The notes under the pieces were generated by a model, which saw nothing but the letters and a program-made list of their open reading frames with translations, was not told where the DNA came from and searched no databases. Positions 7,868 through 46,096 of a DNA stretch of 64,000 nucleotides are shown here, piece after piece. A program made the translations under genes and the position numbers. The DNA is from Minisyncoccota bacterium (lineage in GTDB: Bacteria; Patescibacteriota; Minisyncoccia; Moranbacterales; UBA2206). Location: assembly GCA_031291955.1 (NCBI GenBank), contig JARLIA010000005.1, positions 74,034 through 138,033 of the forward strand, in the 5' to 3' direction. The stretch's first letter is position 1, and each line of letters starts with the position of its first letter.

Positions 7868-9259
7868 TTATTTAGAGGTTTTTTTGTCCCGGTTGTAGAC
7901 GTCTTCATAGCGGATAATGTCATCTTCGCCCAGGTAGCTTCCGGTTTGGACTTCGATGATTTCCAGATTTATTTTGCCGGGGTTGCTGAGGCGATGTTTG
8001 TTGCCCATCGGAATAAAAGTACTTTCGTTTTCATGGAGGGTGATTTCTTTTTCACCGTTGACGATTTGGGCCGTCCCATAGACCACGATCCAGTGTTCGG
8101 CCCGGTGATTGTGGGACTGCAGGCTCAATTTGGCGCCGGGGTAAACCGTGATTTTTTTCACCTGGTGCTGCGAGCCGGCGATCAAGACTTCATATTTCCC
8201 CCAGGGGCGGTGGACGATGATGTTATGCTCCAGTTCCGGCATCTTGTTTTCCTTGAGATAATCAACTATCTTTTTGACGTCCTGGCCGCAGCCTTTCCGG
8301 TGGACCAGGATGCTGTCGGTGTTTTCCACAATAACCAAGTCTTTCACGCCAACGGTGGCAATCAGTTTGTTGCCGGCCGAAAGGGCGTAGATGTTGTCGG
8401 AATCGACGGCGACAGTGCGGGTGCGGTTGTCTTTGCCTTGGATCTCGCTCAAGTTTTCGAACGAGCCGATGTCGCTCCAACCGAAGTTGCCTTCAAAAAC
8501 GACCATGGTTGTAGATTTTTCACTGATAGCGTAGTCGATGGAAGTGGACGGAAGGTTAGAAAAATTTTTAAGCAGTTCAGAGAGACTTCCTGCGGCAATT
8601 TTGGAAATTTCCGGCGCGTGAAGAGCCAGTTCCCGCCAGAAGGCGGCCGGTGTAAAGAGATACATCCCGCCGTTCCAGACGTAAGCGCCCGAGGCTAAAT
8701 ATTTTTCGGCCGTTTCCTTATCTGGTTTTTCGGAAAAACCGGAAACAGTGGAATAGGCACCCTTGTCTTGGTCTTTTTTAATGTAACCGTAGCCGGTTTC
8801 CGGTCGGGTGGGCGTGATGCCGATGGTGCCGATGTTGGCGCCGACGTTTTCAAAGGCGTTTTTTAGGACGGCTAGATATTTCTCCCGATCGCCGATGTAG
8901 TGGTCGGAAGGCAAAAATGCGATCGGTTCGTTTTTCCCGACGCCGAATTTTTCTTCCATATATTTAACAGCGAGCGTGATAGCCGGCGCGGTATTGAGGC
9001 TTTCTGGTTCCACGATGATTTGCGTTTCGTTGAAATCTCCGTTTTCCATTTCCTTGATCTGGTTGGCCACATTGAAAAAACTTTCGTAATTAGTGATGAA
9101 AAAAATGTGGTCGGCCGGCATGAGAGCCCGCATCCGGGAGTATGTTTCCTGGATGAGTGAACGATCGCTGAAAAGGTCGAGGAATTGCTTGGGGAAATTT
9201 TTTCGGGAAAGCGGCCAGAGGCGCGAGCCCGATCCGCCGCAAAGAATGACGCTATACAT
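7868..9259 (-). CDS. manC: mannose-1-phosphate guanylyltransferase / mannose-6-phosphate isomerase (bifunctional type)
   Basis: N-terminal GGSGSRLWPLSR nucleotidyltransferase motif and a C-terminal cupin with HNHRAEHW. Confidence 0.9.
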   Translation of the reverse strand: MYSVILCGGSGSRLWPLSRKNFPKQFLDLFSDRSLIQETYSRMRALMPADHIFFITNYESFFNVANQIKEMENGDFNETQIIVEPESLNTAPAITLAVKYMEEKFGVGKNEPIAFLPSDHYIGDREKYLAVLKNAFENVGANIGTIGITPTRPETGYGYIKKDQDKGAYSTVSGFSEKPDKETAEKYLASGAYVWNGGMYLFTPAAFWRELALHAPEISKIAAGSLSELLKNFSNLPSTSIDYAISEKSTTMVVFEGNFGWSDIGSFENLSEIQGKDNRTRTVAVDSDNIYALSAGNKLIATVGVKDLVIVENTDSILVHRKGCGQDVKKIVDYLKENKMPELEHNIIVHRPWGKYEVLIAGSQHQVKKITVYPGAKLSLQSHNHRAEHWIVVYGTAQIVNGEKEITLHENESTFIPMGNKHRLSNPGKINLEIIEVQTGSYLGEDDIIRYEDVYNRDKKTSK

Positions 9260-17208: not shown

Positions 17209-17457
17209 TCAACGGCTTTTATCGCTGGCCCTTGGTTTTGTTTTCTTAATGATTATTTCTCTAATTTTCAGGACGCTTTTGCCCGAGACTGGCATTTTCG
17301 GTTTCTTCTTGTTTTCTCGCTTCTCAGCCCCGCCTGCCGCGCTATGCCGCCAATAATCATTTTCATATTGACTGGCAAAGTTTTTGTCTAGCATTAACCC
17401 TTTGAAGTTATCCCCAGACGCGGCATTGCGGGCAGGTTTTGTTTTTTTGGCAGACAT
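17209..17457 (-). CDS. doubtful ORF (82 aa, highly basic) that spans a GC-rich bracket hairpin
   Basis: ATG ORF of low complexity. Contains the 17333..17436 hairpin and a 12-mer motif, so it may be non-coding. Confidence 0.25.
   Translation of the reverse strand: MSAKKTKPARNAASGDNFKGLMLDKNFASQYENDYWRHSAAGGAEKRENKKKPKMPVSGKSVLKIREIIIKKTKPRASDKSR
17333..17436. repeat. long imperfect hairpin with GC-rich bracket (CCTGCC..ATGCCGC / GCGGCAT..GGCAGG)
   Basis: 17333-17350 pairs with 17420-17436 (about 16 bp). On the minus strand the bracket reads CCTGCCCGC...GGCAGGCGGGG, the same cores as the linkers of the nested tRNA locus. Confidence 0.7.
17406..17417 (+). promoter_or_regulatory. variant of the DnaA-box-like 12-mer (AGTTATCCCCAG)
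   Basis: One mismatch to AGTTATCCACAG. Followed by ACGCGGCATTGCGGG, compared with GCGCTTGC at the other copies. Confidence 0.4.
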
Positions 17458-17506: not shown

Positions 17507-17534
17507 TTGACGAGGATGGCGGTAGTGTTATAAT
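17507..17534 (+). promoter_or_regulatory. sigma-70-type promoter (TTGACG, 16-nt spacer, TGT-TATAAT extended -10)
   Basis: Direct reading. Positioned to drive the 17554 ORF and uvrB. Confidence 0.65.
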
Positions 17535-17553
17535 AACATGCGATTTTAATCTT

Positions 17554-17845: not shown

Positions 17846-20068
17846 ATGGAAAACAAATTCAAAATATCCTCCAAATTCAAGCCCGAAGGCGATCAGCCGC
17901 AGGCGATTGAAAAATTGACCGCGGGGCTTGAGGCTGGAAAAAAGTTCCAGACGCTTTTGGGCGTGACGGGGTCGGGGAAGACTTTTACCATTGCCAACGT
18001 CATTGAAAATATCCAAAAACCGACTTTGGTCATTGCGCCCAACAAGACTTTGGCGGCGCAACTGGCGCAGGAATTTCGGACTTTCTTTCCCAAAAGCGCG
18101 GTGGAATATTTCGTTTCCTATTATGATTATTATCAGCCGGAAGCCTACATCGCTTCCTCCGACACATACATCGAAAAGGAATCCCAGATCAACGACGAGA
18201 TCGACCGGCTTCGCCACGCGGCCACCGCGGCGCTCATGAGTCGCCGCGATGTCATCATTTGCGCTTCGGTGTCGTGTATCTACGGTTTGGGCAGCCCGGA
18301 ATATTATCGGAATATTACGCTGGAATTGGCGGTGGAGGACGGTTATTCGCAGGTTCGGGCGTCCACGCCCGAACCGCATAGTCCTGGTAAAACAAAATTA
18401 TCAGTCAAATCTGAATCGAAAATTTCCGCAGATAATAAAAAATTACCAGAAATGGCAGGTTCAATCGGGACGATTGAACCTGCAAAAAAAAATAATAGGG
18501 ACGAGATTGTAAAAAAATTGATCGACATGCAATATAATCGGAGCGATGTTTTGGCGCGGGGGAAATTCCGGCTGACCGGGAATACTCTGGAAATTATGCC
18601 GCCCGGACGGGAAATTGTAACGAGGATTGAAATGGAAGGGGGCAGTATTAAAAAAATATTCGAGTACGATTTTCTTACCGGCGAGGAACTGGGAAAGCTG
18701 GAAAAAGCGGTCATCTATCCAGCCAAACATTTCGTGGTGCCCGAACCGGTGATGGAAGGCGCTTTGGAAAAAATTCAAAAAGAAATGGAAGAGCAAGTGG
18801 AATTTTTCAAGCGTCAGGGAAAGATTCTGGAAGCGGAAAGGATTTCCCGTCGGACGCGCCAGGACATTGAAATGATGAGGGAAATCGGCTACTGCAATGG
18901 AATTGAAAACTATTCCCGCTTTCTCACTGAACGCCAGCCCGGTGAACCCCCCTACACTTTGATCGATTATTTTCCCGACGATTTTCTCATGGTGATTGAC
19001 GAATCGCATGTGACCGTGCCGCAACTCAACGGAATGTATAACGGCGACCACGCCCGGAAAGTCTCACTGATCGACAACGGCTTCCGCCTGCCTTCGGCTT
19101 TTGATAACCGCCCGCTTAAATTTCCGGAGTTCGAGAAAAAAATAAACCAGCTGATTTTCACGTCGGCGACACCGGCAAAATATGAAATGGAAAAATCAAA
19201 AATAGACCCCCTCTCCCGTAATCGGGAGAGGGTTGGGGAGAGGGCAACGCGGAACTCGGCGCCCTCTCTGTCGCGAGTACGCGACATCTCTCCCGAGTAC
19301 GGGGGAGAGGGAAATATTGTGGAACAAATTATTAGGCCGACCGGACTGATTGATCCAGAGCTGGAAATCAAGCCGACCAGAGGACAGGTGAAAGATGTGA
19401 CGGAGGAGATCAAAAAAATAATCGCCCGGAAGGAGCGGGTGCTTATCACCACGCTGACTAAAAAAATGGCCGAAGACTTGTCGGATTTCTTGAAAGAGAG
19501 CGAAGTGAAAGCTGAATATCTCCATTCCGGCGTGGACACTTTGGACCGGGTGCGGATTTTGGAACAATTGCGCCGGGGAAAATTTGATGTTCTGGTCGGA
19601 GTAAATTTGCTGCGGGAAGGGCTCGATCTTCCCGAAGTTTCTTTGGTGGCGATTCTCGACGCGGACAAAGAAGGATTTTTGCGGAGCGAAACGTCGCTCA
19701 TCCAAACCATCGGCCGCGCCGCGCGGAATGTCAAAGGAAAAGTTATTCTCTACGCCGACACCATTACCGGTTCGATGAAACGAGCTATCGACGAGACAAA
19801 CCGTCGCCGGGCAATCCAGACGGAATATAACAAAAAACATCGTATCACTCCAAAAACCATCAAGAAGAAAATCCAGTCGATCGTCGACCATGAAATCAAA
19901 CCTCAGGTGACGCGCGACTTTTCCCAATTGGAATCATTGGAGGATATGGCCGGCTACATTAAACAACGCGAGCGCGAAATGAAAGACGCGGCCCGGAATT
20001 TGGAATTTGAAAAAGCGGCGATCATCCGGGACGAGATAAGTGAGTTGAGGAAGCTGCAGATAAAATAG
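17846..20068 (+). CDS. uvrB: excinuclease ABC subunit B (740 aa, with two in-frame insertions)
   Basis: Walker A GVTGSGKT, helicase motifs, EQIIRPTGL, and C-terminal UVR domain EFEKAAIIRDEISELRKL. Confidence 0.95.
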   Translation: MENKFKISSKFKPEGDQPQAIEKLTAGLEAGKKFQTLLGVTGSGKTFTIANVIENIQKPTLVIAPNKTLAAQLAQEFRTFFPKSAVEYFVSYYDYYQPEAYIASSDTYIEKESQINDEIDRLRHAATAALMSRRDVIICASVSCIYGLGSPEYYRNITLELAVEDGYSQVRASTPEPHSPGKTKLSVKSESKISADNKKLPEMAGSIGTIEPAKKNNRDEIVKKLIDMQYNRSDVLARGKFRLTGNTLEIMPPGREIVTRIEMEGGSIKKIFEYDFLTGEELGKLEKAVIYPAKHFVVPEPVMEGALEKIQKEMEEQVEFFKRQGKILEAERISRRTRQDIEMMREIGYCNGIENYSRFLTERQPGEPPYTLIDYFPDDFLMVIDESHVTVPQLNGMYNGDHARKVSLIDNGFRLPSAFDNRPLKFPEFEKKINQLIFTSATPAKYEMEKSKIDPLSRNRERVGERATRNSAPSLSRVRDISPEYGGEGNIVEQIIRPTGLIDPELEIKPTRGQVKDVTEEIKKIIARKERVLITTLTKKMAEDLSDFLKESEVKAEYLHSGVDTLDRVRILEQLRRGKFDVLVGVNLLREGLDLPEVSLVAILDADKEGFLRSETSLIQTIGRAARNVKGKVILYADTITGSMKRAIDETNRRRAIQTEYNKKHRITPKTIKKKIQSIVDHEIKPQVTRDFSQLESLEDMAGYIKQREREMKDAARNLEFEKAAIIRDEISELRKLQIK
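18352..18483 (+). repeat. in-frame palindromic module 1 inside uvrB
   Basis: GGTTCGGGCG-TCCA-CGCCCGAACC (18352-18375) and GCAGGTTCAATCG-GGA-CGATTGAACCTGC (18455-18483) flank an A-rich word region. Confidence 0.85.
19209..19309 (+). repeat. in-frame palindromic module 2 inside uvrB (four consecutive hairpins)
   Basis: CCCTCTCCCG-TAAT-CGGGAGAGGG; GAGAGGGC-N15-GCCCTCTC; GTCGCG-AGTA-CGCGAC; CTCTCCCG-AGTA-CGGGGGAGAG. Confidence 0.85.
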
Positions 20069-20075
20069 TGAAAAA

Positions 20076-20087
20076 AGTTATCCACAG
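20076..20087 (+). promoter_or_regulatory. 12-mer AGTTATCCACAG containing a perfect DnaA-box consensus TTATCCACA
   Basis: Direct reading. 8 nt after the uvrB stop and 8 nt upstream of a -35 element. Confidence 0.6.
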
Positions 20088-20095
20088 GAGGGCGC

Positions 20096-20123
20096 TTGCT
20101 CATTCTTGTCGGAGTTCTATAAT
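20096..20123 (+). promoter_or_regulatory. promoter (TTGCTC, 16-nt spacer, TATAAT)
   Basis: Direct reading. Preceded by GGCGCTTGC. Confidence 0.55.
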
Positions 20124-20219
20124 TGAAACAGGCAAGGTTTGGAAACAAAGATACAATTAATGTTTCCGCGTATGAAATGCTATTTGGCTGGAAAATTAAA
20201 TGGCATTGCAATCATAATG

Positions 20220-20243
20220 AACACGTTTTAGGCGTGTTTTTTT
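20220..20243 (+). terminator. small rho-independent terminator
   Basis: AACACG-TTTTAGG-CGTGTT followed by TTTTT. Confidence 0.5.
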
Positions 20244-20259
20244 GTTCCCCGAAAACCCC

Positions 20260-20288
20260 TTGCAATTTTTCTCGAAACGTGCTATAGT
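20260..20288 (+). promoter_or_regulatory. promoter (TTGCAA, 17-nt spacer, TATAGT)
   Basis: Direct reading. Confidence 0.6.
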
Positions 20289-20294
20289 CGGCCG

Positions 20295-20615
20295 TTAGGA
20301 TAGGAAGATGGTTCTTTCAAAACTTGGTGCGTTTCAATTCTTAAATTAAACTTAGCTGTCTCACTAAAGACAATATGTATGGATGTTATTTTTAGCGAGG
20401 CAGTTAAGTTCTCAATATAAATTTTGCTCGCAGGAGCCACTTGAGCGAAGCACTCGTGGCATTTATCCGAAAGGATTTATACCATGCGCTCGGGAAAGGC
20501 CACTTCTGGGAAGCACTCGCGGCGGAAATCTCACCGTGCCCTAAAGGAGAGAAAAATTTATCTCTGCCAAGCCTCCGGGAAAGAAAGACATGTCTTTCTT
20601 TCCCATCCTCATTTT
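20295..20615 (+). ncRNA. candidate structured RNA or long leader (about 320 nt), class unknown
   Basis: Delimited by the 20260 promoter and the perfect 14-bp palindrome GGGAAAGAAAGACA/TGTCTTTCTTTCCC (20577-20604) plus a T tract. Contains two related 25-nt hairpin units (20436-20460, 20499-20523). No convincing ORF. Confidence 0.35.
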
Positions 20616-20677
20616 TGTTTGATTATACGGAAAAAGCAGTTATGCAGTTATAAAGTTTATTAGGAAAGGAGTTTGCC

Positions 20678-20890
20678 ATGTACGCTGCAAATGCGATGAG
20701 TGAGAGTCTGGTTTTGGCGGCAGTAACACTGGCGCCTCAGCCTGAGATGGCAGCAGTTCAGGGGATGTTCTTGTGTCGCCGCTGCGATGATTGTGGCGTT
20801 AGAGCTGATTTAAAATCAGCGGAGGGCAGCAGAGTAGTTCTTCAATGCCCCCGGTGTCAGAGGGAGTACACCTTTTTCAGTAGGGAGTAA
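20678..20890 (+). CDS. small zinc-ribbon protein (70 aa)
   Basis: Strong RBS GGAAAGGAG 7 nt upstream of the ATG. CRRCDDCG...CPRCQ, two CxxC pairs. Confidence 0.5.
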   Translation: MYAANAMSESLVLAAVTLAPQPEMAAVQGMFLCRRCDDCGVRADLKSAEGSRVVLQCPRCQREYTFFSRE

Positions 20891-20970
20891 TAAAAATGAA
20901 AACATTGAGGATTGAGACCGTGCCGGTAATCGGGACTTGTCAAAAGCATTGCTGACGAGTCCCTTTAAAT

Positions 20971-20999
20971 TTGTCTAAAAATAAATACTAATGTAGAAT
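20971..20999 (+). promoter_or_regulatory. promoter (TTGTCT, 17-nt spacer, TAGAAT)
   Basis: Direct reading, upstream of the 21028 gene. Confidence 0.55.
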
Positions 21000-21027
21000 A
21001 TGGCAGTAACTAATAAGAATAAAATAA

Positions 21028-22065
21028 ATGACGAACATGACGAAAAAAATAATCCTCATCGTGGTGATTGTGATTGTCGCGCTGGGGCTGGCGGGGTATA
21101 AATTTGCCAAGCCGGATTTTTCCAAGATTTTTGCCAAAAGCCAGACGACTAAGGTTCTGACGCCAGACCAGGCTAAAGTCAAAGCCCTGGATTATATCGA
21201 CAATAATCTGGTGCAAAAGGGCACAAAAGTAAGCGTGAAAAACATTGCTGAAGCGAACGGTCTTTATAAATTGGACCTGGATGTCAGCGGCCAGACCATT
21301 ACAGCCTATATGACCGAGGACGGTTCGCAGTTTTTTCCGAACGCTATGGACATGAATGCCGCGCCGGCCAAGCCAGCGGCGGCCGATCAGCAGCAAGCCG
21401 CCCAACAGCCGATTCCCAAAACAGACACGCCAAGCGTTCAACTTTTTGTGATGAGCTATTGTCCTTATGGCACGCAGATAGAAAAAGGGATTTTGCCGGC
21501 TCTTTCCGCTTTGGGAAGCAGTGTGAAATTTAATCTTGAATTTGTCGATTATTCCATGCACAACGATGCTTCGACCGGCGATCAGAAAGAACTCAACGAA
21601 AATTTGCGTCAGTATTGCATCCAGAAGCTCCAGCCGGATAAATTGGGAACTTACTTGAATTGCTTTTTGCAAAAAGGCCAGGGCACGGAAAGCGCTTGTA
21701 TGACCCAAGCCGGTGTGGACGCGGCGCCGGTCGCGACTTGTATGACAGCGACCGACAACCAATACAGCGTCAGTAAGAACTTTAAAGATCAAAGCACCTA
21801 CAATGGTCAGTTCCCGACGTTCAAAGTCGACGAAGCGGATAATCAGAAATATAACGTTCAAGGCTCGCCGACTTTGGTGATCAATGGAGTGGTTGATCAG
21901 GCTGGAAACCGTGATTCGGCTTCGCTGCTTAAGGATATTTGTTCAGCTTTCAATACAGCACCGGCCGCTTGCAGTACCGCTAAACTTTCTTCCACCGCGC
22001 CGTCGCCGGGATTCGGCACCGGTACGGACACGAGCGGTTCAAGCGCTAGTTGCGCGACGAAATAG
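21028..22065 (+). CDS. membrane-anchored secreted thioredoxin-fold-like protein
   Basis: N-terminal TM anchor. VQLFVMSYCPYGTQ resembles a thioredoxin/glutaredoxin active-site region but has only one Cys in the motif. Low-complexity S/T/G tail. Confidence 0.5.
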   Translation: MTNMTKKIILIVVIVIVALGLAGYKFAKPDFSKIFAKSQTTKVLTPDQAKVKALDYIDNNLVQKGTKVSVKNIAEANGLYKLDLDVSGQTITAYMTEDGSQFFPNAMDMNAAPAKPAAADQQQAAQQPIPKTDTPSVQLFVMSYCPYGTQIEKGILPALSALGSSVKFNLEFVDYSMHNDASTGDQKELNENLRQYCIQKLQPDKLGTYLNCFLQKGQGTESACMTQAGVDAAPVATCMTATDNQYSVSKNFKDQSTYNGQFPTFKVDEADNQKYNVQGSPTLVINGVVDQAGNRDSASLLKDICSAFNTAPAACSTAKLSSTAPSPGFGTGTDTSGSSASCATK

Positions 22066-22094
22066 AGTCGCGAAAGCAGAGCGAATGGTTAGCG

Positions 22095-22128
22095 AATAAG
22101 AGCGAATCCTTAAAGATTCGCTCTTATT
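22095..22128 (+). terminator. rho-independent terminator embedded in a GCGAAT/ATTCGC word palindrome (22081-22150)
   Basis: AATAAGAGCGAATC-CTTAAA-GATTCGCTCTTATT 14-bp perfect stem. Confidence 0.7.
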
Positions 22129-22162
22129 ATTATTCGCTTTAATTCGCTCATCATTTGCGATT

Positions 22163-22174
22163 AGTTATCCACAG
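22163..22174 (+). promoter_or_regulatory. 12-mer AGTTATCCACAG (perfect DnaA-box consensus inside)
   Basis: Direct reading. 7 nt upstream of the lexA -35 element, same arrangement as at 20076. Confidence 0.6.
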
Positions 22175-22181
22175 CCGGCGC

Positions 22182-22210
22182 TTGCGATGATATTTAATCA
22201 GTGCTAGAAT
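22182..22210 (+). promoter_or_regulatory. lexA promoter (TTGCGA, 17-nt spacer, TAGAAT) with overlapping inverted repeat CAGTG-N9-CACTG (22199-22217)
   Basis: Direct reading. Confidence 0.55.
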
Positions 22211-22241
22211 AACACTGTAATAAACTTAGATAATAAAAAAT

Positions 22242-22919
22242 ATGCAAAACACACAATCGCTTACCGGAAAGCAAAAGAACCTGCTCGAAACGATCCGGGA
22301 ATATGTTGACCAGCGAAATGAAAATCCGACCAGTTATCGCCTGCATAAATACTTGGAAGCGCAGGGCGTGAGAGACAGTTTGAAGTCTGTCATGCAAGTC
22401 ATTGAAGCTTTGGAGAAAAAAGATCTGGTGAAACGTGACGGCGACAAGCGGCTCTATCTCATTGAGAACGGCAATTATGCCAATCTGAAAAACATTTTTT
22501 CCGTGCCGGTCTATGGCTTGGCCTCTTGCGGCGAAGCCTTGGCCTACGCCGAGGACAACGTGGATGGGTTTTTGCAAATCTCCAAAGCCTTGTTTCGCGG
22601 GGCCGACTCGGCCAAACTTTTCGCCGTCAAAACTTTGGGTGATTCGATGGACAAAGATGGCATAAACGATGGCGATTACGTTATCTTTGAAAAATACGAA
22701 TACGACAAAGGAGAGGAGCTGGAAGGGAAAATCGTGGTGGCGGTCATCAATGGAATGGCGACGATCAAGAGATATAAAAAAGTGAGCGACGAAATCATCG
22801 GTCTTTTCCCGCGCTCGAAAAACACCGTCCACCAGCCGATCTTCATCCATTCTTCCGACTCGATCCTGGTCGCCGGGATTTTCCGGAAAGTGCTGCCGGT
22901 GAAATACGTAAGTTTGTAG
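22242..22919 (+). CDS. lexA: LexA-like repressor (wHTH plus S24 peptidase domain)
   Basis: GDSMDKDGINDGDYVIF (Ser nucleophile) and ATIKRY (Lys). Putative cleavage region VYGLASCGEALAY. Confidence 0.88.
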   Translation: MQNTQSLTGKQKNLLETIREYVDQRNENPTSYRLHKYLEAQGVRDSLKSVMQVIEALEKKDLVKRDGDKRLYLIENGNYANLKNIFSVPVYGLASCGEALAYAEDNVDGFLQISKALFRGADSAKLFAVKTLGDSMDKDGINDGDYVIFEKYEYDKGEELEGKIVVAVINGMATIKRYKKVSDEIIGLFPRSKNTVHQPIFIHSSDSILVAGIFRKVLPVKYVSL

Positions 22920-23014
22920 GCTTGCTTAAAATATTTTTCCGTACTACCCTGTATTAGATAAAAGTAAATACTAAGTACCCGATCTGGGGAAATTTTTGGC
23001 GTTGGGAAATTTTT

Positions 23015-26000
23015 ATGGACAAAATCATCATAAAAGGCGCGCGGGAGCATAATTTGAAGAACGTCGACTTGGAGCTGCCGCGGAATAAATTTATCGTTTT
23101 TACGGGAATTTCTGGGTCAGGGAAGTCGACCATGGCTTTTGATACTATTTTTGCCGAGGGGCAACGGCGCTATCTCGAAAGTCTTTCCAGTTACGCTCGG
23201 CAGTTTTTGGGGCAAATGAATAAGCCTGACGTGGACTATATTGAAGGTCTGTCGCCGGCCATTTCCATCGACCAGAAAGCGGCGTCCCACAATCCGCGTT
23301 CGACGGTTGGAACGGTGACGGAAATCCACGATTATTTGCGATTGCTATATGCCAAGATCGGCCGGCCACATTGTCCGATCTGCTCCCGGGAAATTACGAA
23401 GTTGTCGACAGATGAGATTGTTGATCGGATTTTGGAGATGTGCGCCGCGAAACCTCATCCGCCCCGGAGTACTGGGGCACCTTCTCCTTATAAAGGAGAA
23501 GGAGATAATGGAAGGGGCTGTTCTATCGAAATTCTATCGCCGGTGGTTCGCCAGCGGAAAGGGGAATATTCGACGATGCTGGCTGAGATGTTCCGGCGGG
23601 GGTTTTCCCGCGCTTACGTCAATGGGGAAAAATACGAACTGTCGGCCAAGATCGGAGACGAGTTGGAATTGGCCCGCTACAAAAAACATAATATTGATAT
23701 CGTGGTAGATGAGGTGGAGATATCTAGCGACAACATTTCGCGAATATTTGAAGGAGTGGAAAAGGCGCTGAAGTTGTCGGACGGACTGGTCAAGATAAGA
23801 TCCGAAATCCGAAATACGAAATCCGAAACAATGTCAAAATCAAAAATTAAAAATTCAAAACAAAACAATACGGAAATTGTTTTCAACCAAAAACTTTCTT
23901 GTCCGATCCATGAGATTGAGTTTCCGGAGTTGGAGCCGCGTTTGTTTTCTTTCAACAGTCCGTTTGGCGCTTGTCCGGCTTGCGAAGGATTGGGAACGAA
24001 AAAAGAAATCGACCCGGCGCTGGTGGCGCCGGATAAAAACAAAACGATTGCTGAGGGTGGCATCTTCCCTTGGAGCTACAAACGGAATAACTGGCAAGGG
24101 TCGGTTCTCCGGGCGGTTTGCAATCATTTCCACATCAAAGACAATGTGCGCCTCCGTGACCTTTCGGAAGATGACCTCAACATCTTAATGTTCGGCGGAC
24201 CGGATGCGACCGATATGATAGATAAGGAAGAAGCGGAAGAAATACCCGTCACTTTGAAATCAAAAACCGGTTCAAGCTGGAAATATTACATGACCTGGCG
24301 CGGAGCGGTCGGATATCTTCAAGATCGATATTTCAAGACCGATTCGGATGCGGTGCGGGCGGATATTGAAAAATATATGTCGCAAAATCCGTGTTCGGTC
24401 TGTCACGGCGCGCGTTACAAAAAAGAAGTCTTGCTGGTGACGGTCGGCGAATCCCGCCCGCAACGCTTCGCTAACGCAAGTGTTAGCTTGCGTAGCGATG
24501 CGGGCGGGAAAAATATTGTCGAAGTCTCAAATGTGTCTGTGGCTGAGACGCTTAAATTTTTCGAAAGACTGGAATTGAATAAAAATGAGCAGATCATCGC
24601 CGGGAGAATTTTGAAGGAAATTATTAATCGCCTAGGCTTTTTGGAAAACGTGGGACTGGGATATTTGACTTTGGCCAGATCCGCGGCGACACTAGCCGGC
24701 GGGGAAGCGCAACGGATCCGCTTGGCATCGCAAATCGGTTCGGGTCTCACCGGCGTTTTGTATATTTTGGACGAACCGTCGGTCGGTCTTCACTCGCGCG
24801 ACAACACTAAATTGCTCGAGACGCTTTTTCATCTGCGCGATCTGGGAAACACGCTAATCGTGGTTGAGCACGATGAAGAGACGATGCGGGAGGCCGACTA
24901 TTTGGTTGACATCGGACCGGGAGCGGGAAAATTGGGAGGTAAAATTGTGGCGCATGGCACGCCGGTAGAAGTTATTCGCGATAAAAAATCTTTAACCGCG
25001 GCATATTTGCGGGGTGACGCGAAAATAGAAATGCCGAAATTCCGCCGGCCAGTCAAGAATAAAAAAACGATTGTTGTCCGCGGCGCGCGCGAACACAATT
25101 TGAAAAACATTACCGTCGAGTTTCCTTTAAAAGTTTTGACGTGTGTGACGGGCGTGTCCGGCTCGGGGAAATCCACATTGGTAGAGGACATCCTTTATAA
25201 AGCCTTGGCGTCAAAAATCATGCGGACGCTCGACCGGCCGGGGAAACATTCGGAGATTGTCGGCACGCAATATGTTAACAAAGTGATCATGATCGACCAG
25301 TCGCCGATCGGTCGGACGCCGCGCTCCAATCCGGCGACTTATACCGGGCTCTTTACGCCGATCCGGGAATTATTTTCCCAGACCCGGGACGCCAAATCCA
25401 AGGGTTATGGTCCGGGGCGCTTTTCGTTCAACATCCGGGGCGGACGCTGTGACAACTGCCAAGGCGACGGCCAGCTTAAAATTGAGATGCAGTTCATGCC
25501 GGATGTCTATTTGCCTTGCGATGTCTGTCACGGAAAAAGATACAACAGTGAGACCTTGAAAGTGAAATACAAGGACAAAAACATTTCCGAAGTTTTGGAC
25601 ATGACGGTCAGCGAAGGGCGCGAGTTTTTTGAGAATTTTCCGGCTATTCACGACAAGCTGGCGGTTTTGGAAGACGTCGGCTTGGGCTATATCCAACTCG
25701 GGCAGTCCGCCACCACACTTTCCGGCGGGGAAGCGCAAAGGATAAAACTGGCCACGGAACTGGCAAGGAGGGCGACCGGCGACACTTTGTATATTCTGGA
25801 CGAACCGACGACTGGCCTCCATTTTGACGACATTAAAAAACTTTTGAATGTTTTGAACCGCTTGGTCGATGCCGGCAACACAGTGGTGGTGATCGAACAC
25901 AATTTGGACGTCGTCAAAACCGCCGATTGGATCATTGACTTGGGTCCGGAAGGCGGAGAAGGCGGCGGAAAAATTATCGTTACCGGTCCGCCGGAAGAAG

Positions 26001-26062
26001 TGGCGAAATATCATAAGGAAAGCTGGACGGGAAAGTATCTGAGAGATGTATTGAAAAAGTAG
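23015..26062 (+). CDS. uvrA: excinuclease ABC subunit A (1015 aa, with several in-frame insertions)
   Basis: Two ABC ATPase modules ([18 protein letters not shown]), LSGGEAQR signatures and zinc modules CxxC. Confidence 0.95.
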   Translation: MDKIIIKGAREHNLKNVDLELPRNKFIVFTGISGSGKSTMAFDTIFAEGQRRYLESLSSYARQFLGQMNKPDVDYIEGLSPAISIDQKAASHNPRSTVGTVTEIHDYLRLLYAKIGRPHCPICSREITKLSTDEIVDRILEMCAAKPHPPRSTGAPSPYKGEGDNGRGCSIEILSPVVRQRKGEYSTMLAEMFRRGFSRAYVNGEKYELSAKIGDELELARYKKHNIDIVVDEVEISSDNISRIFEGVEKALKLSDGLVKIRSEIRNTKSETMSKSKIKNSKQNNTEIVFNQKLSCPIHEIEFPELEPRLFSFNSPFGACPACEGLGTKKEIDPALVAPDKNKTIAEGGIFPWSYKRNNWQGSVLRAVCNHFHIKDNVRLRDLSEDDLNILMFGGPDATDMIDKEEAEEIPVTLKSKTGSSWKYYMTWRGAVGYLQDRYFKTDSDAVRADIEKYMSQNPCSVCHGARYKKEVLLVTVGESRPQRFANASVSLRSDAGGKNIVEVSNVSVAETLKFFERLELNKNEQIIAGRILKEIINRLGFLENVGLGYLTLARSAATLAGGEAQRIRLASQIGSGLTGVLYILDEPSVGLHSRDNTKLLETLFHLRDLGNTLIVVEHDEETMREADYLVDIGPGAGKLGGKIVAHGTPVEVIRDKKSLTAAYLRGDAKIEMPKFRRPVKNKKTIVVRGAREHNLKNITVEFPLKVLTCVTGVSGSGKSTLVEDILYKALASKIMRTLDRPGKHSEIVGTQYVNKVIMIDQSPIGRTPRSNPATYTGLFTPIRELFSQTRDAKSKGYGPGRFSFNIRGGRCDNCQGDGQLKIEMQFMPDVYLPCDVCHGKRYNSETLKVKYKDKNISEVLDMTVSEGREFFENFPAIHDKLAVLEDVGLGYIQLGQSATTLSGGEAQRIKLATELARRATGDTLYILDEPTTGLHFDDIKKLLNVLNRLVDAGNTVVVIEHNLDVVKTADWIIDLGPEGGEGGGKIIVTGPPEEVAKYHKESWTGKYLRDVLKK
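23461..23502 (+). repeat. in-frame double hairpin inside uvrA
   Basis: GCCCCGG-AGTA-CTGGGGC (23461-23478) and CCTTCTCCTT-ATA-AAGGAGAAGG (23480-23502). Confidence 0.85.
24452..24509 (+). repeat. in-frame 58-nt long hairpin inside uvrA
   Basis: Outer stem TCCCGCCCGC/GCGGGCGGGA (10 bp). Inner stem GCTA(A)CGCAAG/CTTGCGTAGC. Confidence 0.85.
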
Positions 26063-26067
26063 AAATT

Positions 26068-27327
26068 ATGACGACCATCCTCCAAAAGCTGAAAAACCTG
26101 CCTCAATCACCGGGGGTGTATATTTTCTATGATAAAAATAGAAATATTTTGTACGTGGGAAAAGCGACGTCGCTTAAAGATAGGGTTGGTTCGTATTTTC
26201 AGAATAAGATTGGGGCGGTGCGGACGATTGAGATGTATATGAATGAAGTGACGGATCTGGAGATCAAGAAAACCGACACGGTTTTGGAAGCGTATATTTT
26301 GGAACAATCTTTGATCAAAAAACTTCAGCCGAAATATAACGCGATGGGGAAAGACGATAAGTCATTTACGTACGTACTTCTTTCTAAGGAAGAATTTCCG
26401 AGATTCGCGGTGGTACGGGAAACTGATTTGGATAGTGTAAAATCATCGCCCCGTGGGGGGCAAAAATCTTTGCCCCCCACGGCGAAGGTTTATGGTCCGT
26501 ATACGTCGAAACGGCAAATTGAGGCGGCCTTGAAAATCTTACGGAAAATTTTTCCCTATCACAACCGGCCGGAACATTCGGAGTCCCGGTGTTTTGATTA
26601 TCATCTTGGGCTTTGCCCCGGACCGTATGACGGGAAGATTTCCAAAAAAGAATACGTCAAAAATATCCGGGCGATAAAAATGATCTTGGAAGGGAAGAAG
26701 AAAGGACTTATAAACCGGATGAAAAAAGAGATGGAAGAATGTTCAGACAAGGCTGAATTTGAAAAGGCGGCGGAGGTGCGGAACAGGATTTTTGCGTTGC
26801 AACACATCCAGGACGTGGCGCTGATATCTGATCATAGAGACGCAATTAATCGCGTCTCTGTGGACGACGCAATGATGCGCATCGAAGGTTATGATATTTC
26901 CAATATTTCCGGGAAATTTGCGACTGGTTCGATGGTGGTGTTTGATAATTCAGACGGTGAAATGCAGCCGAATAAATCGCAATATCGTAAATTCAAAATC
27001 AAAAATGTTGAAGGCGCCAATGACGTGGGGGCAATGGAAGAAATGCTTACCAGGAGATTTCGGAACAATTGGCCGCGGCCGAATTTGATTTTGCTCGACG
27101 GCGGAGCCGGGCATTTGAATATGGCGCGGAAAGTCCTGCGGAATCACAAAATAGAAATTCCCTTGCTGGCGGTGGCCAAAGGGCCGGCGCGGAAAAAACT
27201 GGATCTGCGAAGTTTCGGGACCGTGCCGGAACTGCCAAAAAATATCATCGAACAAGTGAGAAACGAAGCGCATCGCTTCGCGATCAGTTATCATAGGAAA
27301 TTGAGAGGTAAATCGTTCACGGATTAA
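26068..27327 (+). CDS. uvrC: excinuclease ABC subunit C, compact form (419 aa)
   Basis: GIY-YIG (GVYIFYDKNRNILYVGKA), UVR domain (AEFEKAAEVRNRIFALQ), endonuclease domain (RIEGYDISN...EAHRFAISYHR). Ends right after that motif. Confidence 0.9.
   Translation: MTTILQKLKNLPQSPGVYIFYDKNRNILYVGKATSLKDRVGSYFQNKIGAVRTIEMYMNEVTDLEIKKTDTVLEAYILEQSLIKKLQPKYNAMGKDDKSFTYVLLSKEEFPRFAVVRETDLDSVKSSPRGGQKSLPPTAKVYGPYTSKRQIEAALKILRKIFPYHNRPEHSESRCFDYHLGLCPGPYDGKISKKEYVKNIRAIKMILEGKKKGLINRMKKEMEECSDKAEFEKAAEVRNRIFALQHIQDVALISDHRDAINRVSVDDAMMRIEGYDISNISGKFATGSMVVFDNSDGEMQPNKSQYRKFKIKNVEGANDVGAMEEMLTRRFRNNWPRPNLILLDGGAGHLNMARKVLRNHKIEIPLLAVAKGPARKKLDLRSFGTVPELPKNIIEQVRNEAHRFAISYHRKLRGKSFTD
26447..26484 (+). repeat. 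in-frame hairpin inside uvrC
   Basis: CCGTGGGGGGCAAA-AATC-TTTGCCCCCCACGG, a perfect 14-bp stem (26451-26482). Confidence 0.9.
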
Positions 27328-27407
27328 GCCTTGAAGTGGCCAATGCTTTGACATCTCTTGCCAAATCCTCTACAATACATCTCTAGTAAGCAATCTTCTT
27401 TCAAACT

Positions 27408-30221
27408 ATGCCCACTCAAAAATCTTCTCCTAAAAATACTTTCTCACTGAAGGATAAAATCGTCATCCGTGGCGCGCGGGTGAATAATTTGAAGAACATC
27501 GACGTGGACATTCCGCGGGATAAATTGGTCGTAGTGACAGGTCTTTCCGGGTCGGGGAAATCTTCTTTGGCTTTTGACGTGGTCTACGCCGAAGGCAATC
27601 GGCGGTATCTGGAAGGCATGTCGAGCTACGCCCGGCAGTTTTTGGATGTTTCGGCTAAACCGGACGTGGACAAAATAGAGAATTTGAGCCCGACCATCTC
27701 AATTGATCAAAAAAGCTTGAGTCGTTCACCTCGCTCGACGGTCGGGACGCTCACGGAAATTTACGATTATTTGCGAGTGCTCTACGCCAAAGTGGGAACG
27801 CCCTATTGTCCTCATTGTCTCTTGCCGATGGGGCGCAAAAAGAACCAGGAAATTTTGGAGGAAATTTTGGTTTTGCCGGAAAATACCCAAGTGGCGGTCC
27901 TGGCTCGGATAAAAAATGAAGGTCAGAGTGTTAAGGATATTCTCAAAAACATCAGTCAGCTTGGTTATGCCCGGGCGCGGGTTGGCGGTAAAATCGTCTT
28001 GATTGCCGACGCCTTGCTTTTTCCGGAAGAAAACTTGAGCGGCAACGTCGAAATCGTGGTTGACCGGATCAATCTCAAGAAAAAAAATCCCGATCACGAA
28101 CGGATGTTGGATTCTATTGAGACTGCTTTTAAATTGGGGAAAGGTTTTATGGCGGTCGCAATCGATAATGGTGAGAGCCGGATTTATAATCAAAATTTTG
28201 TTTGCAGCAACTGCTATTTCAAAATTTCGGAAATCACGCCCAAGAATTTTTCTTTCAACAGTCCCGAAGGCGCCTGCGAACATTGCGCGGGAATGGGTAC
28301 TATCCAGGAAGTGGACGAGGATCTGATCATTCCTAACAGAAATCTCACTTTGGCCGAAGGAGCTATTATGCCGCTCGCCAAGTCCGGCGGCCGGGCTGGG
28401 TATCTCGATACTCTCACCAAGATCGGCGAGAAAGCGGGTTTTTCCGTGAATGAACCGGCGCGGAACATTTCCAAGGAAAATTTGAAAGTTATTTTTCATG
28501 GTTTTGGTGTGCCTGGTACTCCTGGTTATTTTGAGGGAGTGGTGCCGATGATTCGAAAAAAATATACCGAAGCGGCCACTCAGACGGCCCGGACCGACAT
28601 CGAAAAATATATGCTGGAAAAAGATTGTCCCGAGTGTGGAGGCAAGCGTTTGAAAAAAGAATATTTATCCGTCTTGATGAGCGGGAAATCGATCGACGAT
28701 TTGGTCCGGATGGATATCGATACTCTCATTTTATTTTTAGAAAATTTACGGACTGCCGATTTGAGTGCCGCCAAAGCGGAAATCGTGGCGCCATTGGCAA
28801 AAGAAATGATCGCCAAAGCCAAGGCGCTCAAGAACGTCGGCTTGGAATATCTGTCACTTTCCCGCCGGGCCGATTCCATTTCCGGCGGCGAAGGTCAGCG
28901 CATCCGGCTCGCAACTCAAATTGGATCGGAACTTTCCGGTATTATCTATGTTCTGGACGAACCGTCTATCGGTCTCCATTCCCGAGACAATGAAAAGTTG
29001 ATCGACACGATGGAAAAGCTGAAAGAGAACGGCAATTCTCTGATCGTGGTCGAGCATGACAAAGACATTATCGAGTGCGCCGATTGGGTGATCGACATGG
29101 GTCCCGGGGCAGGGGAGTTCGGCGGGGAAGTTATCTTTTCCGGTTCGGTGAAAAAAATGGAGAGCGTCGCGACATCCACTGCCAAGTTCCTTTCCGGCCG
29201 GGAAAAAGTAACGGTTAAGAAGAAACCGCGAACGGCATCGAAGAACTTTTTGGAAATCCTGGGTGCCGCAGAACACAATTTGAAAAATATCGACGTCCGG
29301 ATTCCACTCGGCCGTTTTGTTGCCGTCTCGGGCGTGTCCGGTTCGGGGAAATCCACTTTGGTAACCGACATTCTGGCTCGAGAGCTGGCCCGGCATTTTT
29401 GGAAGGCTAAGAAAAATCCCGGAAAGCATGATAAAATCACTGGTCTTAACCGCTTGGATAAAGTGATTAATATCGATCAATCGCCGATCGGCCGGACGCC
29501 GCGTTCCAATGCCGCCACCTACACCGGTGTCTTTTCACTTATTCGGGAACTTTTCTCCGCCACCGAAGAGGCGAAAAAACGGGGCTACGATGCCAGTCGC
29601 TTCAGTTTTAATGTCCGGGGCGGCCGTTGCGAAGATTGCCAAGGCGACGGAACAAAAAAGATCGAGATGCATCTTTTGCCGGATATGTATGTCAAATGCG
29701 AAACTTGCCAGGGAACGCGCTATAACGCCAAGACGCTTGATATTGAATATCAGGGTGCTACCGTCGCCCAGGTGCTGGATATGAGTGTTTCCTACGCGCT
29801 TCGCTTTTTCCATAAATCGCCGCTTATCGCGGCTAAACTGAAAACGCTGGAAGAAGTCGGCCTGGGCTACATCAAACTGGGACAGAGCGCCACAAATCTT
29901 TCCGGCGGAGAAGCGCAGCGGATAAAATTGGCTACCGAGCTCGCCCGGAAATCGACCGGCAAGACTTTGTATATTTTAGATGAACCGACCATCGGGTTGC
30001 ACTTTGAAGATGTGCGGAAATTGCTTCAGGTGCTGGACGCGCTGGTCGAAAAAGGCAACACTGTTCTTGTGGTGGAACATAATTTGGACGTCATCAAGAA
30101 CGCCGACTGGGTGATTGATCTCGGGCCGGAAGGCGGAAACGGGGGCGGCGAAATTGTTTACGCCGGCGAACCGAAGGGGCTGAAGAAAGCGAAGAGGAGT
30201 TGGACAGGAAAATATCTGTAA
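27408..30221 (+). CDS. uvrA: excinuclease ABC subunit A, second paralog (937 aa, no obvious insertions)
   Basis: Same domain order as 23015..26062: [23 protein letters not shown] signatures and zinc modules. Confidence 0.93.
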
Positions 30222-31435: not shown

Positions 31436-33073
31436 ATGAGTAAAATAATCAAGTACGACGAAGAAGCCCGGGAAAAAATCAAGGCCGGCATCGATGCTGT
31501 AGCCGACGCGGTAAAAATCACGCTTGGGCCGCGAGGACGGAATGTTCTTTTGGATAAGGGTTTTGGAACGCCGATTGTCACCAATGACGGCGTTTCTATA
31601 GCCAAGGAAATCGAACTGGAAGACAAGTTTGAGAATATGGGAGCGGAACTTATCAAAGAAGTAGCCAATAAGACCAATGATGTGGCTGGTGACGGAACAA
31701 CAACTGCGACGGTCCTTACCCAAGCTATTATCGCGGAAGGTCTGAAACTGATGGCGGCCGGTATGAATCCAATTATGGTACGCCAGGGAATCGAAGAAGC
31801 CAAAAATGAAATAATAAAAGAACTCAAGAATAATTCCAAGGCTGTCTCCGGGCGTGAAGAGATTGCACAGGTAGCCACCATCTCGGCCGAAAATCCAGAA
31901 ATGGGTAAAATGATTGCCGACGTGATGGCTGAGACCGGACGGGACGGCGTCATTACTGTTGAAGAATCACAGACCTTCGGGTTGTCCAGGGAAATCGTAG
32001 AGGGGACCAGTTTTGACAAAGGCTACATTTCTCACTATATGATGACCGACAGCGAATCTTTGAAAGCGGAATTGAAAGATCCGTATATCATCATCACTGA
32101 CAAGAAAATTTCCAGCATTCAGGACATCCTGCCGCTTCTGGAAAAGATCGCGGCCTCCGGGAAAAAGGAAATTGTCATCATTGCCGATGACGTGGAAGGG
32201 GAGGCGCTGACGACCTTGGTGTTGAATAAATTGCGAGGTATTTTGAATGTTTTAGCGGTCAAAGCCCCCGAATTCGGCGACACCAAAAAGGAAATGTTGG
32301 AAGATATTGCTATTCTCACCGGCGGGAAAGTAATTACTGAAGAGCGCGGAATGAAAATTGAAAACGCCACACTCTCTGACCTTGGCCAAGCGACTAAAGT
32401 TATTGCTACAAAGGACTTGACCACTGTTGTCAGCGGAAAAGGCAAGAAGAAAGAAATTGAAGCGCGTATCTTGCAACTCAAAACTCGGATCGAAAAATCG
32501 GACAGCAAGTATGACAAGGAAAAACTGCAAAAGCGTTTGGCGAAAATTTCCGGCGGCGTAGCGGTCATTAAAGTCGGGGCGGCCACCGAAACAGAACTGA
32601 CTTATATGAAACACAAAATGGAAGACGCGCTGGCAGCGACGCGCGCGGCTTACGCCGAAGGGGTGGTGGCCGGCGGCGGGACGGCTCTTTTCAAAGCGGC
32701 GGTCGCGGTCGCCAGCAAAATGGAAAACAGCCGGAAAAGCGACGAATACAAAGCTGGCTTTGCCATCCTGGTGAGAGCTTTGGAAGAACCGCTTCGCCAG
32801 ATTGCCAAAAATGGCGGGAAAAAAGATCCGGGCGTAGTGGCCAATGAAGTTTCTAAAAATAAAGGCAAGAACTATGGCTACAATGCTCGAGAAGATCAAT
32901 ATGTTGAAGATATGATAAAGGCTGGTATTATTGATCCGCTGAAAGTGACGCGGACGGCGCTTGAAAACGCGGTGAGCGTGGCAGCTATTCTACTCACCAC
33001 CGAAGCAGCTGTGGCCGAAAAGCCGGCGGAAAAACACGAGTCAGGCATGCCATCGATGCCGATGGGAATGTAA
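31436..33073 (+). CDS. groL: chaperonin GroEL
   Basis: Full-length Cpn60 (DGTTTATVL, VAGGGTAL, Met/Gly-rich tail MPSMPMGM). Confidence 0.96.
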   Translation: MSKIIKYDEEAREKIKAGIDAVADAVKITLGPRGRNVLLDKGFGTPIVTNDGVSIAKEIELEDKFENMGAELIKEVANKTNDVAGDGTTTATVLTQAIIAEGLKLMAAGMNPIMVRQGIEEAKNEIIKELKNNSKAVSGREEIAQVATISAENPEMGKMIADVMAETGRDGVITVEESQTFGLSREIVEGTSFDKGYISHYMMTDSESLKAELKDPYIIITDKKISSIQDILPLLEKIAASGKKEIVIIADDVEGEALTTLVLNKLRGILNVLAVKAPEFGDTKKEMLEDIAILTGGKVITEERGMKIENATLSDLGQATKVIATKDLTTVVSGKGKKKEIEARILQLKTRIEKSDSKYDKEKLQKRLAKISGGVAVIKVGAATETELTYMKHKMEDALAATRAAYAEGVVAGGGTALFKAAVAVASKMENSRKSDEYKAGFAILVRALEEPLRQIAKNGGKKDPGVVANEVSKNKGKNYGYNAREDQYVEDMIKAGIIDPLKVTRTALENAVSVAAILLTTEAAVAEKPAEKHESGMPSMPMGM

Positions 33074-33145: not shown

Positions 33146-33157
33146 CTGTGGATAACT
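33146..33157 (-). promoter_or_regulatory. 12-mer AGTTATCCACAG in inverse orientation
   Basis: The plus strand reads CTGTGGATAACT. Sits between the groEL terminator and the promoter of the 33230 gene. Confidence 0.55.
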
Positions 33158-33229
33158 TTTTTTGGCAAGATATGACAAAACTGAATTTTTGTTATATAAT
33201 TCAAGCAATAAAAAATAAAATAAAAAACA

Positions 33230-46085: not shown

Positions 46086-46096
46086 AGTTATCCCAG
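46086..46096 (+). promoter_or_regulatory. degenerate copy of the 12-mer (AGTTATCC-CAG)
   Basis: 8 nt after the pilN stop. One base is missing relative to AGTTATCCACAG. Confidence 0.3.

Follow-up and report, generated by a model that had tools for sequence, protein, structure and literature searches.

The window, a 64-kb stretch of DNA with a G+C content of about 47%, carries a nucleotide-excision-repair/SOS gene cluster in the order uvrB, lexA, uvrA, uvrC and second uvrA, with groEL and a gene for a large secreted protein farther along. The nucleotide-excision-repair genes are all grouped with lexA (17846-30221), and the second uvrA paralogue encodes 937 aa. GC skew rises steadily through the window, indicating that the replication origin does not lie inside it.

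Table 1. Genes, promoters and box copies in the window, in order of position.
Feature	Position	Strand	Remarks
Small basic-protein gene, 82 aa	17209-17457	-	unannotated; homologues in L036, L040, L013 and L028
uvrB	17846-20068		
Box copy 1, AGTTATCCACAG	20076..20087	+	7 nt past the uvrB stop codon, 8 nt before a weak -35
Copy-1 promoter	20096..20123	+	TTGCTC (20096-20101), 16-nt spacer, TATAAT (20118-20123); read directly
Short transcript, about 115 nt	20130..20243	+	from the copy-1 promoter; hairpin with A-rich loop, terminator CACGTTTTAGGCGTG then T-run
Stretch of 2 kb without long ORF, then 345-aa gene	between uvrB and lexA		
Box copy 2	22163..22174	+	7 nt upstream of the lexA -35
lexA promoter	22182..22210	+	TTGCGA-17-TAGAAT; promoter scan
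Candidate LexA operator	22186..22217	+	GATGATA-N7-AGTGCTAGAATAACACTG; overlaps the lexA -35 and -10; separate from the box
lexA	22242-22919	+	Pfam and NCBIfam matches
uvrA	23015-26062	+	Pfam and NCBIfam matches; with lexA downstream of box copy 2
uvrC	26068-27327		
Second uvrA	27408-30221		
groEL	31436-33073		
Box copy 3, inverted	33146..33157	-	flanked by the groEL terminator and the 913-aa gene's promoter
Promoter near box copy 3	33172..33200	+	ATGACA-17-TATAAT; 16 nt from box copy 3; atypical spacing
Secreted protein gene, 913 aa	33230-35971	+	without known domain

An earlier note on this DNA had described a recurrent 12-mer, AGTTATCCACAG, at three sites, and our scan of the window found the exact sequence at all three, twice on the forward strand and once on the reverse. 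With up to one mismatch allowed there were four matches against 0.13 expected, and none of 100 shuffles reached four. The exact copies all fall outside genes, the first behind uvrB, the second ahead of lexA and the third in the gap from groEL to the 913-aa gene. The similarity among them extends over 12-17 nt, never beyond 17 nt. The promoters that had been placed behind the first two copies are both present, as TTGCTC-16-TATAAT and TTGCGA-17-TAGAAT. The -35 of the copy-1 promoter matches the consensus at three of six positions, which is too weak for a consensus promoter scan, and equivalent promoters were found in relatives. Near copy 3 the only good promoter is ATGACA-17-TATAAT, where the gap to the box is 16 nt and not 6-9 nt.

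Several other elements of that description fell away. The sequence GCGCTTGC, put forward as a motif defining a promoter type, was found four times where 2.8 are expected, a count that 32 of 100 shuffles also attained; what recurs in relatives is 'TTGC' and a G+C-rich spacer alone, not GCGCTTGC. Its supposed instance before the ECF sigma gene (52028) is followed by no -10 at any usable distance. The near-copy at 17406 (AGTTATCCCCAG) lies inside the conserved small basic-protein gene, in whose homologues it is not conserved, some 100 nt away from the actual uvrB promoter (17507-17534), and the near-copy at 46086 differs by the deletion of one base and is followed by no promoter. The placement of copies 8 nt after a stop codon is a mere consequence of short intergenic spacers. 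The 82-aa product of the small basic-protein gene has a conserved tail, KKPKMxVSGKSVFKIxEI, and no Pfam or NCBIfam family was found for it.

We then compared the window with 65 related loci of Candidatus Moranbacteria/Moraniibacteriota (CPR/Patescibacteria), which were gathered by LexA similarity (61-85% identity to the LexA of the window) and together with it amount to 1.04 Mb. The 9-mer TTATCCACA occurred 89 times in this set, about 11-fold above the expected number of about 8, a count inflated by orthology since the lexA promoters of related species make up most of the sites. The distribution between coding and non-coding DNA, proposed as a check on the motif, was far from random: 67 of the 89 copies were intergenic, although called ORFs cover about 88% of the DNA. 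Unrelated bacterial groEL loci totalling 0.91 Mb (from a GroEL metagenome scan, identity 53-64%) served as a negative control and showed no enrichment of TTATCCACA, with 7 copies against 5.9 expected. Box-derived words were the most enriched intergenic 9-mers in the Moranbacteria loci, and the words of the LexA operator ranked behind them.

The flanks of the intergenic boxes are conserved as well, with A at position -2 in 61 of 66 copies, G or C at -1 in 63 of 66 and G at +1 in 49 of 66, whereas the flanks of copies within genes are random. We therefore write the element as A-[G/C]-TTATCCACA-G; the flanked form is also given as an A[G/C]TTATCCACAG-type box. Single-mismatch variants in these loci were almost all coding. 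Five of them keep both the flanks and the intergenic context, three being TTATGCACA and two TTATCCCCA, and TTATGCACA changes position 5, the N of TTATNCACA and the sole degenerate position of the DnaA consensus. Another candidate for a functional variant, TTTTCCACA (66 copies), was rejected, with 63 of 66 inside called ORFs.

The box is unchanged across species over the full range of LexA identity sampled, while the surrounding DNA is unalignable, and about 45 relatives share it upstream of certain weak promoters. The box is a real, selected and conserved upstream promoter element in a large part of Moranbacteria. No boxes joined to the SOS module were found in viral contigs. On an unrelated metagenome contig (L112, 53% G+C) there are boxes at 6073 and 6298, 225 bp apart, one of which has the same flanks (GAGTTATCCACAGG); this may be the oriC/dnaA-promoter region of another bacterium.

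Next to the box, promoters are positioned with little freedom. A promoter of the form TTGNNN-N16-18-TANNNT starts 6-11 nt from the box in 59 of the 67 intergenic copies, compared with 4.7% of random intergenic positions, which puts the box where a bound protein could affect RNA polymerase, as expected of a DnaA-regulated promoter. The box occurs in either orientation, with its centre at about -46 to -50. Forward boxes follow the pattern TTATCCACAg-N7-11-TTGC... (gap 7-11 nt, mode 8) with a G+C-rich spacer after them, and reverse boxes the pattern cTGTGGATAActt-N3-4-TTGCNN-N17-TATAAT (gap 6-8 nt, mode 7). Atypical gaps to the -35 were seen at copy 3 of the window (16 nt) and at the copy upstream of rpoB in L056 (27 nt). 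The 12-mer proved to be a genuine promoter-tied element, with a constrained distance to the -35 and conservation at the lexA and post-uvrB promoters in dozens of Moranbacteria species.

The presence of the box is also linked to the quality of the -35. Among all predicted promoters, the -35 starts with TTGC in 44 of the 49 that have a box and in 62 of the 186 that lack one. Among the non-redundant promoters with a LexA operator, a TTGC -35 was found in 43 with a box and 1 without, and the consensus TTGACA in 2 with a box and 10 without (Fisher p = 2e-8 for box against -35 type, uncorrected for shared ancestry). Activator-dependent promoters classically pair a poor -35 with an upstream site and, where the site is missing, show a repaired -35. 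The weak -35 with the site and the repaired -35 without it are therefore likely to be the signature of an activator site.

That the box belongs to promoters is also seen in promoter modules that are duplicated within a genome (L050, L057, L037 and L052), in which identity starts with the box itself or no more than 1-2 nt from it. The modules concerned are the lexA promoter and the promoter of the upstream RhuM-like or ORF6N-like gene; in L050, about 130 nt at 8507 and 9630 are 100% identical, with the first base exactly at TTATCCACA. Because the identity of the duplicates begins at the box, the box marks the upstream edge of the functional promoter unit. These duplications lend some support to the idea of a promoter cassette that the earlier note had raised.

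We examined the lexA promoter more closely. The proposal that one copy of the box controls lexA was upheld, as the position of the box at this promoter is conserved across dozens of Moranbacteria species. A sequence of the form AGTGATA-N7-AGTGMTAGAATAWCACTG lies over the -35 and -10 of all lexA promoters, box-less ones included, and we take it as the candidate LexA operator of the lineage. It has an architecture of two direct half-sites and one inverted half-site. The strong uvrB promoter TTGACG-16-TATAAT (region 17507-17545), which has no box, carries a weaker copy of the operator (tAGTGTTATAATAACATg) that overlaps its -10.

Box-less lexA promoters belong mainly to one clade (L019, L021-L027 and L063), with L012 and L040 in addition. 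No box with consistent flanks was present in about 170 kb from L019, L021-L027, L063, L154 and L160, the last two being further DNA from genomes of this clade. In the clade, the -35 of the lexA promoter is the consensus TTGACA, often with the terminator of the upstream gene directly before it, and no substitute motif was seen upstream of the -35 in box-less lexA promoters. The box-less clade thus offers a natural case in which the element was lost or gained.

The leaders around lexA contain further repeats. In the window, a hairpin of about 95 nt (22066-22162) with three AGCGAAT and three ATTCGCT repeats (MFE -46.6 kcal/mol, z = -7.0) stops one base short of the lexA box. Similar CGAAT/ATTCG repeat hairpins lie within the lexA 5' UTR of relatives, and CGAATCTAC/CGTAGATTC rank among the most enriched intergenic 9-mers. 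The hairpin may act as a terminator, belong to a MITE-like element or form an array for protein binding. Another pair of inverted repeats, CCCCCACCACTTTT...AAAAGTGGTGGGGG, is inserted in intergenic leaders (L014 at about 8090-8190, and the lexA leaders of L022-L025) and looks like a small mobile hairpin element.

The copy after uvrB had been suggested to start a short transcript, and this was confirmed in that the promoter, hairpin and terminator of an RNA of about 115 nt are conserved in eight Moranbacteria loci (among them L001, L009-L011, L013, L014 and L028). The orthologous box is inverted in 11 relatives (including L002-L005, L036, L009-L011, L013 and L014) and forward in the window; in L001 and L028 the orthologous site carries TGTGCATAA. 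The RNA shows a covarying stem with a conserved A-rich loop (AAAATAAATATAAAA-like), then a conserved ATG, and its terminator is conserved as CACGYTTTAGGCGTG and a T-run. Single-sequence folds of the homologues show a common hairpin. A MAFFT/RNAalifold consensus of the eight homologues gave no structure, the alignment being poor, and Rfam returned no match for the post-uvrB RNA, either in the window at gathering thresholds or at permissive settings in 20000-21100. The transcript may be an sRNA, or else a leader that contains a tiny ORF. Downstream, in the region 20260-21027, a second promoter without a box, TTGCAA-17-TATAGT (20260-20288), has a conserved leader (agttctttcaaaa) and is followed by a 70-aa zinc-ribbon ORF (20678-20890) that has CRRCDDCG...C..C..EY.F in common with L009. 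At this position other relatives have an unrelated Cys-rich ORF of about 105 aa.

Beyond the repair genes, the box recurs at a small set of other promoters. Homologues of the 913-aa protein in two other genomes have a box upstream (L158 at 9817 and L161 at 7312), and these copies are the sole boxes in the two loci of 16-20 kb; an identical 913-aa protein is also found in NCBI assembly GCA_031291895.1. In relatives, boxes are located at SOS-operator promoters of RhuM-like and ORF6N-like genes, and, with looser geometry, before nrdR-nrd (L037) and before rpoB (L056).

These findings raised the question of which protein reads the box. The role of DnaA as a transcription factor is well established. 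The 12-mer is identical in sequence to high-affinity DnaA boxes: E. coli oriC R4 with its flanks is AGTTATCCACAG (12 of 12 positions) and R1 is TGTTATCCACAG (11 of 12), both confirmed between mnmG and mioC in thousands of E. coli chromosomes. The three copies in the window and the 67 intergenic copies of the set match TTATCCACA/TTATNCACA exactly, and the flanks, A-[G/C]...G, are the same as in E. coli R4 and R1. The 9-mer TTATCCACA is the DnaA-box consensus (PMC8203912). Together, the match to R4, the tolerated change at position 5 and the precedents described below make DnaA the most likely ligand.

Our favoured reading is that the box is a co-regulatory site bound by DnaA, with likely DnaA-dependent activation of promoters with a weak -35, and we give it a probability of about 0.55. 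The conservation, the geometry and the link to the -35 were observed directly; the binder, which we deduce from sequence identity, and the sign of the effect are what we infer. In the proposed mechanism, a single high-affinity box, forward or reverse and 6-11 bp ahead of the -35, would serve promoters with a poor, TTGC-type -35, namely the LexA-repressed lexA-uvrA and SOS-controlled accessory genes, the small RNA by uvrB and the large secreted protein. DnaA bound to the box would help RNA polymerase to use the weak -35. At SOS promoters, LexA on the overlapping operator would still repress, and expression would need relief from LexA plus DnaA.

Some points run counter to this proposal. The secreted-protein gene is an odd target for DnaA, and the wide gaps to the -35 at copy 3 and at the rpoB copy of L056 do not fit the usual geometry. 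DnaA is presumably still present in the box-less clade, for which the loss of a dedicated factor is simpler. Searches of all fetched loci for dnaA (tblastn with E. coli DnaA) found none, and nothing convincing emerged in them as clusters of at least three boxes. At the SOS genes of E. coli, moreover, DnaA represses rather than activates (PMC6015884).

In the main rival reading, the box serves as operator for a dedicated transcription factor other than DnaA and specific to the lineage, whose site coincides with or was copied from the DnaA box. We consider this rather unlikely, but gain or loss of such a factor would account better for the all-or-none distribution across clades: loci with the box have it at two or more orthologous promoters, and one clade is box-less, its lexA promoter rebuilt with a consensus -35. 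The regulon, which takes in a secreted protein and RhuM/ORF6N-type mobile-element genes, also fits. On the other hand, the 12-bp identity to E. coli R4 and the commonest change falling at position 5 would then be a striking coincidence, DnaA would be expected to bind too (assuming that it keeps the usual box specificity), and no candidate for the factor was found in the window, which offers only LexA, the ECF sigma factor and a receiver-only response regulator. Scattered at about one per 20-40 kb as single perfect boxes with R1/R4-type flanks, the copies could instead be DnaA titration sites that time initiation without a transcriptional role, intergenic because coding sequence is constrained. 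Titration, however, does not require a fixed distance of 6-11 nt to the -35, does not produce the coupling to -35 quality and leaves the retention of the box at the same promoter across species unexplained, and we regard it as improbable.

Marginally less probable still is an element read by RNA polymerase itself, either UP-like (alpha-CTD) or an extended -35 (sigma). The location at about -45 to -52, adjoining the -35, and the tie to one -35 class (TTGC) would suit it; yet both orientations work, the spacing varies by up to 5 bp and the box is found at no more than 49 of 235 predicted promoters, a minority. An UP element would be an A+T-rich tract at -40 to -60 in fixed orientation, whereas the box is not A+T-rich and contains CCAC. 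That the box is part of the LexA operator, as the SOS box of the lineage, is very improbable. Most sampled copies do adjoin an AGTGATA-type operator, but the box is missing from the lexA promoters of 10 loci (TTGACA-type) that retain AGTGATA-N7-AGTGMTAGAATAWCACTG, it is present without an operator at 20076, at 33146 and at the post-uvrB sites, and the uvrB promoter of the window has an operator-like sequence without a box. A LexA operator would occur at the lexA promoter throughout the lineage and would have dyad or direct-repeat symmetry; the 12-mer is single and not palindromic, with no internal symmetry. Finally, the copies might be chance recurrences or functionless remnants of mobile repeats (MITE/REP-like), since short intergenic repeats are common and some promoter modules are duplicated within a genome. 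The similarity of the window copies stops at 12-17 nt, the enrichment of about 11-fold is lineage-specific, and the box is invariant between species where the flanking DNA cannot be aligned; neither extended similarity nor terminal inverted repeats were found, only a few intragenomic promoter duplications. This reading is effectively refuted.

A stronger form of the DnaA reading is that, in a large part of Moranbacteria, practically all of the LexA regulon and a few other promoters require DnaA as a co-activator. We put it forward tentatively, as a possibility that is more doubtful than DnaA binding itself. If it were true, expression of the SOS genes would demand both cleavage of LexA and availability of DnaA, and a perfect box 8 bp upstream of a crippled -35 would form a hard-wired AND gate of DNA damage and replication-initiation potential, which the sister clade would have dismantled through repair of the -35. 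A variant is that a new lineage-specific factor took over the DnaA-box sequence. CPR/Patescibacteria cannot be grown alone, and to our knowledge almost nothing is known of their gene regulation. The module (perfect box, weak -35 and LexA operator) is sharply defined and can be tested with recombinant proteins alone. In organisms that have very few transcription factors, it would couple DNA repair to the status of the replication initiator, and the clades with and without the box are a natural evolutionary experiment in which loss of an activator site is offset by repair of the -35. Furthermore, the motif can be used as a marker of promoters and of a small regulon in Moranbacteria metagenome bins.

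The closest known systems are promoters of E. coli. There, uvrB, recN and dinJ are co-regulated by DnaA and LexA, with DnaA as a repressor (Wurihan et al. 2018, PMC6015884), and a further precedent for DnaA-LexA control of SOS genes is van den Berg et al. 1985, as cited in PMC8203912. As in these genes, the Moranbacteria promoters combine a DnaA box and a LexA operator in one DNA-repair promoter region, an arrangement that connects the state of the replication initiator with the response to damage. The E. coli SOS genes, however, have several boxes, mostly degenerate, of which the key one overlaps the LexA box, whereas Moranbacteria have one perfect box that is always upstream of a weak -35, implying activation, in an arrangement that is stereotyped over nearly all SOS promoters of the clade. 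Activation has a precedent in E. coli nrdAB, which likewise has high-affinity DnaA-type boxes in the promoter region and where DnaA bound to such boxes can stabilise the RNA polymerase-DNA complex (PMC8203912). This effect is ascribed there to DnaA-ADP or low DnaA-ATP (Augustin 1994 and Olliver 2010, as summarised in PMC8203912) and turns to repression at high DnaA-ATP (PMC8203912). Moranbacteria differ from nrdAB in the single box and in the gene set, the box just upstream of nrdR-nrd in L037 having an atypical geometry. R1 and R4 of E. coli oriC are origin sites, clustered with low-affinity sites to open the DNA; the Moranbacteria boxes are isolated and promoter-adjacent, and such a cluster was not seen in the fetched loci.

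In B. subtilis and Caulobacter, DnaA also works as a transcription factor, with a modest regulon in which genes of DNA metabolism are included (PMC8203912, which summarises Goranov 2005, Ishikawa 2007 and Hottes 2005), and in B. subtilis stable DnaA binding is described at eight intergenic regions (Ishikawa 2007, PMC2533591). If DnaA binds the Moranbacteria box, the likeness would be that of an initiator doubling as the transcription factor of a modest regulon; the difference from B. subtilis is a single consensus box per target at a fixed promoter position. Co-regulation by DnaA and LexA is already known from E. coli and the kind of regulation is not new. What is new is the lineage, the stereotyped single-box architecture and the gain or loss of the element at the level of clades.
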